Source: Bilabrum cf. latius
Taxonomy: Eukaryota
Reading direction: 5' to 3'
DNA length: 64,000 nucleotides
Assembly (NCBI GenBank): GCA_965178125.1
Contig: OZ237748.1
Coordinates: forward strand, 1,116,001 to 1,180,000
Under the pieces are notes generated by a model, which ran no database searches, was not told the origin of the DNA, and saw only the letters and a program-made list of their open reading frames with translations. Position numbers and translations under genes: made by a program. Of this stretch, positions 23,871-55,123 are shown piece after piece (positions within the stretch are counted from its first letter, which is position 1; the number at the start of each line of letters is the position of its first letter).

Positions 23871-24129
23871 ATGGGCCGGGACCGGAGCAGCTTGTGACCT
23901 CTCAACTTCCACATCCGCATGTGGTCGGTGATCCGATCCCCCTGATCCGAGTCACTCGTCACACATGCCCAACCCACACTTGCCCGGCCTGTGCCTCCCC
24001 CTTCCTATCCGCCTCATCAACCCAATGACCCCACCGATCATCTTCTCTTCCACCATTTCCTCCCCCGTTCCGGTGAACCGTGAACCGTCGTCCCCCCCTC
24101 CCTTTGCTCTACCCTCCCCCCCCTAGCTG

Positions 24130-24131
<2 letters not shown>

Positions 24132-24177
<46 letters not shown>
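24132..24177. repeat. (CT)n microsatellite
   Basis: Pure CT run. Confidence 0.95.
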
Positions 24178-24179
<2 letters not shown>

Positions 24180-49623: not shown

Positions 49624-50157
49624 GCACTTTGTATTTAAAGTGTGTGATAGGATTCACTGCAGGGCGTGTGTCTGATCTGTGCGTTGCCGGGGGCTGGCGG
49701 CAGGGCGAGGAGATGGCCAGCGGCTGGGATGCTGCTTTGAGCTTGTCTCCCGCGATGGGCTTGAGATTGCTGTCTCTGGGGATGCATTGAATAGAAAACC
49801 ATGGTACATGCTTGACTTTGTCAGACCTGGAGGACGATCATGCCTCGACCACTCCACGGTACGACCACCTGCGATTTTTAGTAGCTTGAAGTATCTGTCA
49901 CCGGGTGCATTTATCCAATCTACTTCAATATGGCAGGTCACACAGCCCACTTTCGAGCTACGAACTTCGTAACCGGCACGCACGCCCCGCGCCTGGGGCG
50001 GTAGCCGAGCAAGGTACAGCCTATCCGGATCCGGATTCCGGATTTAGGGACCGACAAGCCACCCATCCATCTGTGGGCCGCTGCAACACAACCGCGACAC
50101 ATCATTCAGCCGTAGCACCTTTTGTTGCGCTGGTCAACACTCTCTGGCACCCGCCCG

Positions 50158-53100
50158 TCACACCTCAATGGCGCCCGCGCTCTGGGCGTCGTCGAAGCGC
50201 TCGTCCTTCTGGTTGGGCGAAGGCTTGCCCCGGCTGCCACTCGTCACAGTGACGTTCACACCCGCCTTGTCCTTGGGCTCCTCGGCCGCGTCCCCGGCCT
50301 TGCGCATCTGCCTCCACAGCACGAAGGCCGCCAGGGCAAGGAGCCCCACGCCGCACACGGCGATGGCCGCGACCAAGCCGGTCGAGAGCCCGTCATCACC
50401 GTCGCTCGAGGGCCGGTCCAGCAACGCCGCGGCCCTCCCCGCCCCCGACGTCTGCTGGTCGATGGCCACACCGCCAGTGCCGTCCCCCAGCAGGATCTCG
50501 CTGAGAACGGCGTCGGCTTGGATCGACGCGGCCAGGCTCCCGTCCGCCTGCGCACTCGTCACACGGGCCAGGCCGGCGGTCGCCTGCTCCTCGTCCTCGG
50601 CGGTGATGACGATCGTCACGTTGCTGCTAAAGTACACGTCACCCTCGCCGGAAACCTGATCCTGCAGCAGACGCCCCCTCCCGCGCCGCCTGCCCCTCTT
50701 GGACGACCGCACCGTGGCCGAGGTCAGGGGCGGCTCCTCGGCGTCAACTTCTCTGGCGGCCTCGAAGGCCGCTTCCCGGATGACCCTGGCGAGAGCACCG
50801 GCCTCGTCACAGCCCACGATGTCGCTCGTGTCCAGCATCAGGTCCAGCCGCACCACTGGCTGGGTGCCCGGGATGGTGGCCAGGGGAACCAGGGGGGCCT
50901 CGGGGGTGCCCTCGCACTCCTCCTCCTCGTCCACGTCGGCTGGCACCGCCGCCGGCACCACGGTCAGGGCGACCGCGGCGGCCGCAGAGGTCTGCAGACC
51001 CCCGTTGGTGCTCGTGTTCCCCACGGCCCCGGCGTCGGTGACGGTGAACTCAACGGACACTTCCGTCTTCAAGCCCTGGAAGCTGCTCCTGGCGCGGAAC
51101 CCGACGGCCCGCCCGGCTGCCTCCAGCACATCCAGCGACAGGCCGGGGCTCTGGGCGTCGGTCGAAGTCACCGCGAGCGTGCACGAGTCGTTCGACTCGG
51201 CCGACGACGCAGGCCCCGTCCAGACCCCCTGCACCGAGGCGGGCGCGCCCCCCCCCAGGAACAGCTCGTCCTCGGCGGGCCGGCAGCCCGCGGCGACGCG
51301 CACGTCCAGCCTGGCCATCGTGTCGTCGTCCACGTCGGTCAGCGAGATGATGGCCGAGTCACCAAGCAGCGCCACGCCGTCGGCGCCGCGCACGTAGTTC
51401 CCCAGCGGAGCCGCCAGGGCGATCTCCAGCAGCGGGGCCTGGTTGACGTGACGGATCGCCACGCCCCTGCCGACGGTTGCGACCGCGGGGGCGCCGCCGC
51501 TCGCGGCGACGGCGCGTGGGCTCGCGTCGTGCAGCGTGGCTACCACCCGCCTCGCGCCCACGGGGATGGCGGAGCCGGCCATAGACCGGAACCCAAGGCC
51601 TCGCAGTGCCTCCAAAACGGTCGCCAGCGAGCCCTCCTCGATGGAGCCCATGCGACCCCCGTCGGTCAGTGTGACGAGTGCGTCCACGTCGGGGTCCGCC
51701 ACCACCAGCTGGTCTCCTGCCCTGGCCATCTCAATCGTCACATCGGCGCTGATGTTGCGCCCCGTGTCCTGCGCCCGCACCTGCAGCCCCAGGAAGAGCG
51801 CCACGGGGCCGTCCTGCCCCTCCACGAACACGGCCGACTCGGAATCGACCAGGAGCTCGGGAACCCGGTAGTCCAGCAGTACGTCGATCGTGACGCTGTC
51901 CGAGGCAGACTCTTGGTCGCTCTCGTCCACCTGGCCGCGGCTGCCCGTGTCCTTGATCGTCACATCCAGGTGGCGATCACCCGGAGTCATAAACGCGGCC
52001 GAGCTGTTGAAGGCGAGTCCCTCCAGCGCCGTCTGCAGGTCCATCGGCGACATGCCGGCGGTGATGGCGGTCAGGCCGTCCAGGCCCAGCATCAGGCCGC
52101 CCGCACCCCCCGTCAGGTCCACCAGATGGTCTCCCTGCATGGGATCCTGCAGCTCCACCGCTGCCTCCAGCAGCACGTCGTCCGCGTCCGTGAGCATCAC
52201 ACCCCCCAGCAGCTGCAGCGGCATGTGCGCACCCTCGTCATATGTGACCGTTGAGTTCTACAGGGCGATCACGGGCGCCTGGTTGGCCGGGATGATGGCG
52301 ATACTCACGTTGAGGGACGTGGACACGCCCGCCACGCTCCCAAAACCGGCATCCGTCAGCGTCAGCGTGACGGTGCGGGTCAGCGAGGCCGAGTAGGGGG
52401 CGTCAGTCCTGAACTGGAACCCGCGCAGCACCTCCGGGATATCGGCCGTGGCGATGCGCTGCGCCGGGTCGCTGGTGGCAGAGTGCCCACCAGACACGAC
52501 GGAAATGCCCGCGCCGGCCTGGCCCGTGGGTGCCCACACGATGGCGTCGCCCTCCACGGGCTGCTGGATGGCCACGTGCACGTCGTAGCTGCGGGTCTCC
52601 TCGGGGTCGGTCACGGTGACGCCGTCAAAGAGCGTGGGGAAGGGTGCGTCCTGCCCCTCGGTGACTGGGGCCGGGGCGGTGCCCGCCTGGATTGAGTGGC
52701 CGTCGTTGACAGGCGTGATGGCCACGCGCTGCACGAAGGTGGACGTGAGGCTTCCCTCCCCCGCACTGTCCGTCACATTGACCTCGATGCTGCGGCCGTT
52801 CTCGTAGACCTCGCTCGTCGTGAAGAAGCTGACGGCCTCGAGTGCTGCCCCCACCGTGGAGATGTCGCCTCTCGGGATGGTTGCAACCGTGTCGTCCGCC
52901 GAGAGCGCGATGCTGGATCCGGTGAACTCCAGCCGGTCCCCCGTCTGCGGGTTCTTGATGCTCACCACAGCCTAGACCTCGTCGCTGTCGGGGTCCCTCA
53001 GGGCGATGCCCGCCAGCAGCTGCGCCGCAGGGGTGCCCTCCGTGTAGGCCACCGGAGTCGTCACGGCGCTGGCATCGATGACGGGGGCGTCGTTCACCTC

Positions 53101-55123
53101 GACGACCAACACCTTCAGCACGGCGCTCGCCACGGCTCCGTCCGCGTCCGTCGCGTTGATGAGGATGTGACGAGTGGGGCCGCCCGCGGGCCTGTCCTCC
53201 GCCTCGCTGCTGAAGGCGACCGTCCGGAGCGCCGCCTGCGCCGCATCCGCCGCCTGCTCCGCGACCATCGCCATGTGCGAGTCCCCGGACAGCGTGACGA
53301 GTGCGGTGTCAGCCGAGAGCGCGTCCTCCTCCGCGTGAGGCCCGCTGATGGTCACGTTGATGGCCACATCACTGTCGGGGTCCGTGACGTTGACAGCCGA
53401 CAGGATCGGCATAGCTGGCGACCCTTCCCTGTACTCGATGAGATCCTCGGGGACGGCGATGATCGGCACGTCGTTCGTGGGCGTGATGCGGATGGTGATG
53501 GTGACCAGTGTCTCGAGTCCGTCGTTCTCGTCCCGGGACACGAGCGTGAGGTTCTTGGAGGTCTTCTCCGTGCCAGACCGGAACAGGAGCTTGCCGAAGT
53601 CGCCCTCCACCATGGAGTCCGACTGCGGGCCGAATGTGAAGGTGTGGCCGTCCGCCCCCATGACCCGGTGATCACCCAGGGTGCCGGTGTACACGAGCTC
53701 GTCCTGCTCCTCCGGGTCGTCGATGCTCACCACAAGGGTGGCCTTGCCGCCCTCGGGGTCCACCATGTCGAGCCCCGTCAGGAACGCAACCCCGTCCGCT
53801 CCCTCCGTGTAGGCCACGGGGAGCGTCATGCCGGACGTGTCCAGGACTGGGGGGTCGTTGATGTTCGTGATACTCAGCGTGATCTGCGCCGTCGCCGACA
53901 TGCCCGCGAAGTCGGTCGCCGTGAGAGTGATGGTCTTCGAGGCTGACTCCGTGCCAGACCGGAACGAGAGGCTGTCCACGTCCGCGAGTAGCTCGGGGGG
54001 GAATTGCGGGCCGAAGGTGAAGGTGTGCTTGTCAGTCGCCAGCACCCGCATCACCGCAGCACCCGTCGACCCCGTCCACACGAGCTCGTCCTGCTCCTCC
54101 GCGTCGTCGATGCTCACCACCAGGGTCATGTTCTGGCCCTCTGGGTCCGTGACGTTCAGCCCGGTCAGGATAGCCACTGCGTCTGCTGACTCGGTGTAGG
54201 CCACGGGGAGCGTCAGGCCGGACGTGTCCAGGACTGGGGGGTCGTTGGGCGGACCCACGTTGATGATGATGTCCTCATGAACCACATATTGTGCGAAAAT
54301 GTCCGTGAGCGTTATGTGCACGGTGCGGGCCCCCAACTTCTGCCCGGTGGAAGTGAACGTGACCTCTTCGTAGTTCGCAGGTGATCCCATGGTTTGTTCA
54401 TTCCGCTGGTGCATTTCTCCAATTGTAGCATTAACCTCAAACACTGCATCGTCCTCCTCGAGTGTCCAACCCGACGCCATCCCGTTTGAGAATTGCAGCT
54501 TGTCCCCCTCCTGGGCGTTGACAATTTCCGCTCGCAGGCTAAGGTACGCTTTTTCACGCGCGACGACGTCGAGCTTCTCCATGATCGGCAGAGGATCCGT
54601 CTCGCCGGGTAGGAAATTTCGGGTCAGGCTCATCCGGGAGGTGTTCAATGCCGGCATGGGGGGCTTCTTTAAGGTCACGTTGACGTTGATCTCCTGATAT
54701 TTCGATCGGTCGTCATGGTCACTGAACTTAACCTGGTACAGGCGCCAAGTGGGCCGCTGCAGCATTTCTTTCAGCCAATATTTACCTCTTTCCAAATCAA
54801 ATTCAGGATGGAGTAGGACTTGAAACCTAGCTAGGTCCTACAGGAAATCATCCTGATTGTCATAGAGACGACTGCTTACAGCCTCAGCAGTCGGATTATC
54901 GAACAGTGACGAATCGTTGCCTGAAAACTCAATGAGAACCTTCCGCCCACCGAGGAAGGCATCGGGGTACACGGATAGCCTCAGATCTTTCAGCTCGAAA
55001 AGGACCGCTTTTAGCGGCGGCACTTTAGCTTGGGTGCCCTCGGTCTCCACGTGTGTTGGAAACAACGTCGCATTCATGAACGGTCCGTCCGGATTGCGTT
55101 CGGTCGGGTTACCTTGCACCCCC
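50158..55123 (-). CDS. Large type-I membrane protein with tandem cadherin-like repeats (last exon; 5' exons unresolved)
   Basis: ORFs 54838, 52972, 52258 and 50158 are one frame joined across TAG 54838, 52972 and 52258. Repeated NDPPV/NDAPV...Y.EG...TDPD/E motifs and TM helix GLVAAIAVCGVGLLALAAFVLW. CTAAC...CTGCAG acceptor near 55124. Ends at TGA. Confidence 0.85.

Follow-up and report, generated by a model that had tools for sequence, protein, structure and literature searches.

Hyper-abundant exact words lying on coding sequence are, to our knowledge, known only from bacteria, and we know of no eukaryotic counterpart. The closest described systems include the uptake signal sequences (USS) of the Pasteurellaceae, the DNA uptake sequences (DUS) of the Neisseriaceae, HIP1 of the cyanobacteria and the chromosomal words Chi and KOPS, and such iterated words have revealed DNA uptake specificity, recombination control and repair biases in bacteria. 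Here, a 12-base word, GTGTGACGAGTG, was analysed in a stretch of 64,000 nucleotides (the window) of the eukaryote Bilabrum cf. latius, corresponding to positions 1,116,001 to 1,180,000 of the forward strand of contig OZ237748.1 (GenBank assembly GCA_965178125.1). In the window, 25 exact and nine one-mismatch copies of this word were found, all of them within 23953-53303 (the word-bearing zone). A full-text search of the literature gave no account of GTGTGACGAGTG, of its companion words or of a comparable eukaryotic phenomenon; the titles of the matches were unrelated, and these matches were taken to be primers and the like.

The reading favoured here, which is given about an even chance of being right, is that (G)GTGTGACGAGTG(C/G/A) would be a lineage-wide iterated recognition word of duplex DNA, lying on GC-rich and for the most part coding sequence, gained by substitution and held by biased conversion or repair, or by selection. 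The density and sharpness of the word, its costly substitutions, its conservation at synonymous positions, its presence on both strands, frame shares set by coding compatibility and a palindromic companion all favour an iterated word of the bacterial type. The bacterial words are explained by a molecular bias for the sequence together with recombination, or by a function at the level of DNA.

Abundance, sharpness and independence of the copies

Matches to GTGTGACGAGTG with at most one mismatch numbered 0.28 on average and never more than two in 100 dinucleotide-preserving shuffles, against the 34 observed, and the word is the top-ranking dispersed 12-mer by count in the window. This amounts to 34 copies per 29.4 kb, or about one per kilobase, where 0.3 or fewer are expected. 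The core GTGACGAGTG occurs 32 times in the window. The original prediction, made from the letters of the window alone, had claimed a strongly over-represented dispersed motif of 11-12 bp, and the counts bear this out; all 22 coordinates that it cited are exact copies, and the exact copies at 28187, 28265 and 28343 can be added to them.

A third-order Markov model of 23901-53400 predicts 0.01 exact, 0.31 one-mismatch and 3.2 two-mismatch copies, while 25, 9 and 5, respectively, were observed. The family is sharp, with a degenerate tail that is almost nil. The one-mismatch copies vary at word position 1 (four copies), 2 (two), 4 (two) or 10 (one). Shuffling of synonymous codons with the proteins kept gave on average 0.25, 0.13 and 0.003 copies in the three main open reading frames (ORFs), which hold 10, 7 and 2, and permutation of the codons inside each of these ORFs gave 0.001 copies on average.

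Flank sharing is limited to eight of the 34 copies. Four of them belong to a 78-bp tandem array (28099-28357), and the four at 23953, 24325, 35476 and 38293 stand at corresponding positions of a dispersed repeat family, about 80% identical, which lies beside ankyrin-like gene copies. Copies outside local duplication share no flank similarity, and about 21 independent exact copies remain after duplication is discounted. The enrichment survives both codon-preserving shuffles and the removal of duplicates, the controls that had been proposed for it. All four members of the dispersed family retain GTGTGACGAGTG with at most one change; judging from this family and from a homologous pair of copies reading ALVTL in the cadherin-like protein described below, old copies of the word persist.

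Base preferences at the borders of the word were obtained from 57 de-duplicated copies, 21 from the window and 36 from environmental contigs. The preceding base is G in 74% of them; at the following position C (56%) is the commonest base, before G (23%), A (18%) and T (4%). An Rfam scan of the window matched no family. A spacing period of the copies was rejected, as the copy coordinates show only multiples of three within an ORF.

Coding context, in-place replacement and transcripts

The word recurs in several unrelated genes (Table 1). In the region of the WW-domain ORF the ten intervals between consecutive plus-strand copies, from 27605 to 28991, are all divisible by three. The first of them (438 nucleotides, 27605 to 28043) crosses a stop-bounded ORF boundary, and from 28043 onward each plus-strand copy in this ORF reads (G)VTS. 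Six copies in the 717-residue minus-strand ORF read VTS and one reads CDEC. The G content 5' of the word peaks at each third base, which fits the codon register GGT GTG ACG AGT GCN, and several copies fall in ORFs with a strong periodicity of GC content at third codon positions (GC3). Antisense copies are also present, at 29158 and 28773 in the WW-domain ORF and, in the cadherin-like gene, where the coding strand is clear, at 51669, 53292 and 53165, beside two sense copies at 50553 and 50238.

Reading frames were called by the longest ORF through the word for 58 copies (22 from the window and 36 environmental), three tandem duplicates being dropped. ORF length and Pfam-supported genes were used to call the strand, and not GC3 minus GC2, which is ambiguous because GC1 is also high. 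The VTS frame was found for 34 of the 58 copies (59%; 13 of 22 in the window and 21 of 36 environmental) and for 24 of the 32 clear cases. The other frames, with window and environmental copies in this order, were TRH (4 and 4), HSSH (3 and 7), CDE (2 and 1) and LVT (0 and 3). Thus five of the six frames occur, and the open frame is never the one of GTGTGACGAGTG that contains TGA. The VTS, CDE(C), HSSH and LVT readings in unrelated genes had already been claimed by the original prediction and were all recovered, with TRH in addition. Sense copies make up 37 of 58 (64%).

Chance probabilities were obtained from an independent-codon model trained on about 6 kb of local sequence confidently called as coding: 8.8e-8 for VTS, 2.4e-8 for CDE, 2.1e-8 for TRH, 1.4e-8 for LVT, 1.1e-8 for HSSH and 0 for the frame with TGA. 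The model predicts 56% VTS and 71% sense copies, while the absolute density of GTGTGACGAGTG is roughly 10,000 times that of the model. Since the shares of frames and strands match codon compatibility, an explanation of the bias at the RNA level is not needed, and it is mainly for this reason that a process at the DNA level is ranked first.

Word positions 5, 8 and 11, which are the third codon positions of Val, Thr and Ser, show no variant in the 34 copies. This absence of synonymous variation holds even though rare codons are involved (in local coding sequence AGT makes up 6% of Ser, GGT 13% of Gly, ACA 5% of Thr and GCA 11% of Ala codons), and the other frames and the opposite strand are enriched too. 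The signal sits in the nucleotides and not in the peptide. Of the original proposal of a DNA-level signal, a signal at the nucleotide level overlaid on coding sequence is upheld by the occurrence on both strands, the five of six frames, the fixed codons and the replacement in place that is described next.

Seven of seven alignable copies, at five independent sites (51669, 53292, 53165, 50553, 50238 and two on the environmental contig L094), show no change of length against homologues or internal repeats. When the internal repeats of the cadherin-like protein were aligned, ALVTL and PTRHI stood without gaps in columns that hold other residues in other repeats; the two copies read as ALVTL are in different repeats, at positions homologous to each other. 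A near-length homology search with the C-terminal 698 residues of this protein gave no match, while an exhaustive search did find homologues. One of them, P0028, is 40% identical to the cadherin-like protein, with the same membrane span and the same C-terminus, and is gap-free at the word: ALVTLT is aligned with SAATVS, RVTSA with RLAIA and TVTSG with SANAS. No VTS, LVT or VAT occurs anywhere in the sequence of P0028. For the GT41 protein of L094, the homologues P0003 to P0005 (30-35% identity) are collinear with it at both GVTS copies, HGVTSA standing against KEVRST and DGVTSA against EPLTYF, DPLNYF and EPINYF; at the latter site the word displaces residues conserved among the homologues (PLTY, PLNY and PINY by GVTS). 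A PDB search with the L094 protein aligned only the C-terminal lobe, with the word sites outside the alignment.

The 80-nucleotide flanks of 58 copies showed no second conserved motif, terminal repeat or target duplication, and only neighbouring copies of the word were enriched; a second terminal motif is ruled out by this analysis. In an all-against-all comparison of the fetched environmental loci, no diverged pair differing at a word was found. The above alignments show that the word enters by substitution of bases or replacement of short patches in place, and not by insertion.

Contigs of four public sequencing runs from three studies (X1, X5, X6 and X7) were compared with 39400-53400. X1 has an even, DNA-like depth over this stretch; X6, X7 and partly X5 are guessed to be RNA from spliced joints, a poly(A) end and very uneven depth. 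Joints of run contigs were found at 46286/46754 (GT..AG) and 42183/42346 (CT..AC), and a loose poly(A) end at 49815, behind a gene for ribosomal protein L28e. The host is a eukaryote with GT-AG introns, spliced transcripts and a poly(A) tail. Seven copies of the word are crossed without a break by contigs of runs with spliced joints (four by X6, 43269-43824; three by X7, 50114-51910, and by X5, 49913-51910). The collinearity of these contigs means that the word is not spliced out, and an intron of 10-12 nucleotides is ruled out. The two confirmed introns start with GTGAGT and GTGAGA and not with the word; together with the collinear contigs this also rules out a splice signal or 5' splice site. 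GTGTGACGAGTG is unchanged in contigs of all four runs. All four also include many contigs that agree with the window over only about 20 bases at or beside a copy and then continue into other sequence, for example at joints between copies 39854 and 40345 and at loose ends at 43436 and 44733. From these contigs we infer, and do not count, other loci carrying the word.

The L28e gene (49111-49623, plus strand) has the deepest coverage in the compared stretch. Its relatives in a collection of 5.8 billion proteins are only three, with identities of 99%, 76% and 34%, and by this measure the lineage appears poorly sampled. A variant genetic code in which TGA is read was ruled out, as the gene for L28e terminates at TGA and the 99% relative is equally long. 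The cadherin-like gene has two in-frame stops, one at 52258-52260, and over 51881-53400 runs X5, X6 and X7 hold a version that differs by about 5-7%, at a depth far above that of the window copy, which may be a pseudogene or a silent paralogue.

Other contigs, companion words and word-free DNA

Metagenome contigs were scanned for two same-strand copies of the word 40-70 nucleotides apart, and 97 stretches were returned. About 15 of 99 fetched loci (57 kb in all) resemble the window, with a GC content of 0.53-0.63, unrelated flanks, G before and C, G or A after the word. Copies beyond the selecting pair were found in these loci (six in L095 and four in L053, for example), and the genes on them include endonuclease III, a GT41 glycosyltransferase and a prenyltransferase alpha subunit. 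These 15 or so loci share no sequence with the window; L091, which is outside them, matches the ankyrin-like family of the window in about 74% of bases and 82% of residues when translated. In prokaryotes the double-word pattern was found in only five stretches in 596 Gb of genomes, and in IMG/VR in two low-complexity arrays. The recurrence of the same dispersed word on other contigs, as seen in these loci, indicates that it is not confined to this locus, and the original prediction is not refuted in this respect.

The majority of the 99 fetched stretches, with 34-50% GC, proved to be unrelated satellites or minisatellites in which the word is the building block, and they were set aside. Such satellite loci (L005, L027, L032, L060, L070, L078 and many others) hold up to 30 copies per 1.6 kb, and word-built arrays of this kind dominate any database search for GTGTGACGAGTG.

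With repeats masked, the palindrome GGTTGCAACC ranks next among the dispersed words, and it frequently extends to CGGTTGCAACCG. It has seven exact copies in the window (30940-52888), three in the 57 kb of window-like contigs and none in the other 370 kb of fetched loci. By the longest ORF, nine of these ten copies are in frame V-A-T; the remaining one is read as TVATI in the translation of the cadherin-like gene. The palindromic companion suggests recognition of duplex DNA. One-mismatch matches to GGTTGCAACC at 4394, 12961, 15794, 22122 and 32437 coincide with copies of a 295-nucleotide repeat family (D5, inverted repeats I1-I4). A further word, TGCATCGCA, has six copies in the window and ten in the window-like contigs, mostly in the same orientation as GTGTGACGAGTG, and CCAGGGAACA and GATCGGAGCA have 14 and 6 copies in the window-like contigs. 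The lineage seems to have a small vocabulary of iterated words.

Within the zone the copies are concentrated in GC-rich DNA. A local GC content (300-bp window) of at least 0.60, which holds for 52% of the zone, was found at 32 of the 34 copies; 17 fall in parts with GC of at least 0.70, which make up 16% of the zone, and none in the 33% below 0.55. The original claim that the copies lie mostly inside exons is supported in part, by the 32 copies at GC of at least 0.60, by the GC3-periodic ORFs and by the seven copies in contigs of runs with spliced joints.

No copy with at most one mismatch is present in 1-23900 or 53401-64000, of which 12.7 kb have a GC content of at least 0.60. A low-GC insert (4300-16000, GC 29-39%) has no copy of GTGTGACGAGTG, nor have the repeats that flank it. 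These are two direct repeats of about 4.3 kb (1-4300 and 17729-22050) that are 98-100% identical, and 295-nucleotide repeat copies lie at the junctions (4318, 15718, 22046 and 32361), with an inverted copy at 12882. The insert, which encodes an integrase and a primase-helicase, looks polinton-like or virophage-like. Seven ORFs (two of them duplicates) in 1-4000 and 15900-21700 had no Pfam match, and the earlier label Ngaro could not be confirmed. It had also been suggested that absence of the word could mark foreign DNA. The low-GC insert and the 12.7 kb of GC-rich DNA outside the zone conform to this, but host introns and other lower-GC DNA are also without the word. The distribution agrees equally well with foreign DNA lacking the word and with only old GC-rich exonic DNA having it, and the absence may simply track young, non-exonic or low-GC DNA.

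Table 1. Positions of word copies, genes and word-free segments (numbering of the window; positions on environmental contigs as contig:position)
Feature	Position	Strand	Context
GTGTGACGAGTG, exact	23953..23964	-	dispersed repeat family, downstream of ankyrin-like gene
GTGTGACGAGTG, one mismatch (position 4)	24325..24336	-	same dispersed repeat family as 23953
GTGTGACGAGTG, one mismatch (position 2, synonymous GGT to GGC)	27605..27616	+	VTS frame of ORF 27385-27993, from coordinates
GTGTGACGAGTG, exact	28043..28054	+	sense, G-V-T-S frame, WW-domain ORF
GTGTGACGAGTG, exact	28109..28120	+	sense VTS, unit 1 of 78-bp tandem array
GTGTGACGAGTG, exact	28187..28198	+	sense VTS, tandem duplicate (78-bp array)
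GTGTGACGAGTG, exact	28265..28276	+	sense VTS, tandem duplicate (78-bp array)
GTGTGACGAGTG, exact	28343..28354	+	sense VTS, tandem duplicate (78-bp array)
GTGTGACGAGTG, exact	28406..28417	+	sense VTS, WW-domain ORF
GTGTGACGAGTG, exact	28511..28522	+	sense VTS, WW-domain ORF
GTGTGACGAGTG, one mismatch (position 1)	28553..28564	+	sense VTS, WW-domain ORF
GTGTGACGAGTG, one mismatch (position 10)	28773..28784	-	antisense to WW-domain ORF
GTGTGACGAGTG, exact	28856..28867	+	sense VTS, between two WW domains
GTGTGACGAGTG, exact	28991..29002	+	sense VTS, between two WW domains
GTGTGACGAGTG, exact	29158..29169	-	antisense to WW-domain ORF, reads HSSH
GTGTGACGAGTG, one mismatch (position 4)	35476..35487	-	dispersed repeat family
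GTGTGACGAGTG, exact	38293..38304	-	dispersed repeat family
GTGTGACGAGTG, exact	39854..39865	+	antisense to ORF 39247-40380 (-), an uncertain gene model
GTGTGACGAGTG, exact	40345..40356	+	antisense (HSSH) to ORF 39247-40380 (-), an uncertain gene model
GTGTGACGAGTG, exact	41064..41075	-	sense VTS, ORF 40933-41676 (-)
GTGTGACGAGTG, one mismatch (position 1)	41861..41872	+	opposite minus-strand spliced gene; contig covers 41764-42183, skips to 42346
GTGTGACGAGTG, exact	43425..43436	-	sense VTS, 717-residue ORF
GTGTGACGAGTG, exact	43482..43493	-	sense VTS, 717-residue ORF
GTGTGACGAGTG, exact	43599..43610	-	sense VTS, 717-residue ORF
GTGTGACGAGTG, exact	43712..43723	-	sense, C-D-E-C frame, 717-residue ORF
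GTGTGACGAGTG, exact	44145..44156	-	sense VTS, 717-residue ORF
GTGTGACGAGTG, exact	44520..44531	-	sense VTS, 717-residue ORF
GTGTGACGAGTG, exact	44721..44732	-	sense VTS, 717-residue ORF
GTGTGACGAGTG, exact	48102..48113	-	abuts 57-bp tandem array; TRH in + ORF, VTS in - ORF
GTGTGACGAGTG, one mismatch (position 1)	50238..50249	-	sense T-V-T-S-G, cytoplasmic tail of cadherin-like gene
GTGTGACGAGTG, exact	50553..50564	-	sense R-V-T-S-A, cadherin-like gene; collinear with RLAIA of P0028
GTGTGACGAGTG, exact	51669..51680	+	antisense, A-L-V-T-L in repeat domain of cadherin-like gene; no indel against other repeats or homologues
GTGTGACGAGTG, one mismatch (position 1)	53165..53176	+	antisense, P-T-R-H-I in repeat domain of cadherin-like gene; no indel
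GTGTGACGAGTG, one mismatch (position 2)	53292..53303	+	antisense, A-L-V-T-L, cadherin-like gene; repeat position homologous to 51669
ORF with two WW domains, Ser/Gly-rich N-terminal part	27994..29373	+	10 exact copies
717-residue low-complexity ORF, GC 0.75-0.80	43279..45432	-	7 exact copies and 3 palindromic-word copies
Cadherin-like repeat protein gene, C-terminal membrane span, GC3 about 0.9	50158..54837	-	2 exact and 3 near copies, both strands
GGTTGCAACC	30940..30949		frame V-A-T
GGTTGCAACC	41305..41314		frame V-A-T
GGTTGCAACC	44245..44254		frame V-A-T
GGTTGCAACC	44857..44866		frame V-A-T
GGTTGCAACC	44905..44914		frame V-A-T
GGTTGCAACC	48334..48343		frame V-A-T
GGTTGCAACC	52879..52888		reads T-V-A-T-I in cadherin-like gene
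GGTTGCAACC	L014:6078, L055:1958, L055:5630		window-like contigs
TGCATCGCA	27543, 29073, 30620, 41037, 45465, 59976		window
Window-like loci	L014, L034, L042, L043, L053-L056, L063, L068, L085, L086, L094, L095, L097		57 kb in all
rve integrase with chromodomain	6256-7620	-	low-GC insert
PriCT_2 and D5/Herpes_ori_bp-type primase-helicase	12776-15838		low-GC insert
4-kb repeats	1-4300, 17729-22050		word-free GC-rich DNA outside zone
Two tandem arrays	56.1-57.8 kb		word-free GC-rich DNA outside zone
5' part of cadherin-like gene			word-free GC-rich DNA outside zone
Coding-like stretch	59.1-60.7 kb		word-free GC-rich DNA outside zone

Other repeats of the window were noted. A segment with an intron-split ankyrin-repeat gene on the minus strand is present in three copies (23909-26550, 33428-35800 and 36268-38634) that are 80-99% identical. 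Exact minisatellites were found at 56064-57832 (a 32-bp unit repeated 20 times, followed by a 48-bp unit repeated 16 times, GC about 0.75), at 38706-39314 (77-bp unit, eight times) and at 47722-48068 (57-bp unit, six times). None of these arrays contains GTGTGACGAGTG; the copy at 48102 abuts the last of them.

Competing explanations and comparison with known systems

Under the favoured reading, a putative sequence-specific binding or repair protein would recognise GTGTGACGAGTG, and copies would be gained and held through a word-directed bias of repair or gene conversion (molecular drive, which has been proposed for the uptake words of bacteria), through selection for a function in the chromosome, or through the two together. 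Such a process may act at sites of frequent recombination or repair, and the association with extreme GC would then be explained as well; recently arrived mobile DNA would not yet have gained copies. The copies are spread over the frames as local codon and amino-acid usage allows, so that the cheapest reading, Gly-Val-Thr-Ser-Ala in disordered segments, dominates.

Several points weigh against this duplex-DNA word. Only two of the 34 copies lie in the lower-GC 48% of the zone, and the two confirmed introns have none. This scarcity misfits, as a process with access to all DNA would be expected to leave unconstrained DNA no less densely filled. In bacteria, uptake words and HIP1 also occur outside genes. 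The clusters in disordered coding segments are all sense (six of six with a supported coding strand), which fits an element of the messenger RNA (mRNA) as well. Frame calls by the longest ORF are unsafe at such high GC, and the training set of the codon model is small (about 6 kb) and itself holds copies of the word. The environmental loci were picked by eye and selected for pairs, so that their copies are neither independent nor an unbiased sample, and abundance across the genome is extrapolated from other contigs and not a count.

The main rival is a cis-element of the mRNA that would be bound by an RNA-binding protein or a guide RNA, with a role in exon definition or in the export, localisation, stability or modification of the transcript, and selected in the sense direction in exons; antisense copies would be by-products or would serve antisense transcripts. 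It is considered rather unlikely, and it stays the main rival because of the near absence of the word from lower-GC DNA and introns. The 32 of 34 copies in GC-rich, exon-like DNA, the sense orientation of the clusters and the retention of the word in contigs of runs with spliced joints (X6 and X7) are all in keeping with it, and a length of 12-14 nucleotides would suit a guide-RNA duplex or the code of a repeat protein. However, the 4.7-kb cadherin-like gene holds one exact and two one-mismatch copies in antisense, where chance would give far below one, and the share of sense copies (64%) is not above the 71% expected from codon compatibility. In addition, a perfectly palindromic companion word is more typical of duplex recognition, and no RNA structure or second motif accompanies the word.

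A runaway process that needs no factor, by which words abundant by chance would spread through short-patch ectopic repair into near-matches while selection only purges harmful readings, is regarded as improbable. Over-representation of several unrelated words in the same DNA (GGTTGCAACC, TGCATCGCA, CCAGGGAACA and GATCGGAGCA), replacement in place with sharp borders, the overriding of conserved residues in L094 and the lack of copies in 100%-identical, presumably young repeats could all be accommodated by it, but ectopic repair does not itself explain the restriction to GC-rich DNA, and we know of no precedent for ectopic conversion templated by only 12 bases, which counts against it. Insertion of 12-base mobile elements (excision footprints, a nano-element or introner remnants) that survive where the frame is kept is contradicted and very improbable. 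A word length that is a multiple of three, the TGA-containing frame that is never open and the clustering in change-tolerant segments would suit insertion, yet none of the seven alignable copies at the five independent sites changes the length of the protein, no second conserved end, target duplication or flank similarity was seen, and the frames are not evenly spread as random, stop-filtered insertion would give. Hardly any credence is left for a peptide motif (G-V-T-S-A, for example a modification site) or for local duplication, codon bias or assembly error, all of which are contradicted. Most copies do read G-V-T-S-A/G in Ser/Gly/Ala-rich segments, and four are tandem duplicates and four belong to one repeat family. 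Against this, identical codons are used each time, rare ones included and without synonymous variants, other frames and the opposite strand are also enriched, and about 21 copies have unrelated flanks. Shuffles that keep protein and codons give at most 0.25 copies per ORF on average, and four runs from three studies as well as unrelated environmental contigs carry the word unchanged.

In comparison with described systems, the word resembles USS and DUS in being one exact short word at roughly one copy per kilobase, with exact copies far outnumbering degenerate ones and an abundance thousands-fold above composition, and in having copies inside genes that arose by substitution in the least costly frames. 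In contrast to these, the host is a eukaryote with spliced, polyadenylated transcripts, for which natural competence is not known to us, the copies are nearly confined to GC-rich, exon-like DNA, and the double word is almost absent from the 596 Gb of prokaryote genomes searched. HIP1 is likewise a hyper-abundant short word that spreads through genes by substitution, and the companion GGTTGCAACC, a palindrome with one reading frame, is close to it; the main word GTGTGACGAGTG differs in not being its own reverse complement, in its 12-14 bases and in its eukaryotic host. The likeness to HIP1 and uptake words that was originally proposed is borne out by density, sharpness, origin by substitution and frame preference, and is strengthened by the palindromic companion. 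Chi and KOPS of bacterial chromosomes are also over-represented, non-palindromic words with a strand preference that are tolerated in genes. Their skew follows replication, whereas here the only measurable skew follows transcription and can be accounted for by codon compatibility.

Eukaryotic comparisons are less close. The PRDM9 target motif, M26/CRE-type sites of fission yeast and the minisatellite core are short words recognised by proteins and possible in coding DNA; a link to GC-rich DNA is expected for them from biased gene conversion, and the 78-bp array described here carries the word in each unit. The one hint of a hotspot role, an indirect one, is that half of the copies (17 of 34) fall in the GC-richest 16% of the zone. 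Unlike GTGTGACGAGTG, such hotspot words are expected to erode, are degenerate and are much rarer per kilobase. Introners and transposon-derived insertions of algae are present as thousands of near-identical, gene-oriented short sequences in GC-rich protist genes, but they are 50 to a few hundred bases long and are spliced out, while GTGTGACGAGTG has 12 bases, is not inserted and stays in contigs of runs with spliced joints.

About one exact 12-mer per kilobase of GC-rich genic DNA in a eukaryote points either to a sequence-specific force on nuclear DNA (drive) or to a novel signal in gene bodies. Either answer would bear on the non-adaptive shaping of proteins, on extreme GC and low-complexity segments and on telling old DNA from new, and GTGTGACGAGTG could serve as a simple marker for binning metagenome contigs of this lineage and for dating insertions. 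A further-reaching proposal, put forward tentatively and judged unlikely, is that this eukaryotic lineage carries self-propagating DNA words (GTGTGACGAGTG, GGTTGCAACC and others) whose spread through exons, by conversion biased towards the word or by short-patch repair, would overwrite residues conserved among homologues; their density, accruing with residence time, would separate resident host genes from recent viral and transposon DNA, a difference that the cell might use. If true, this vocabulary of self-propagating words would be the eukaryotic counterpart of the uptake and HIP1 words of bacteria.

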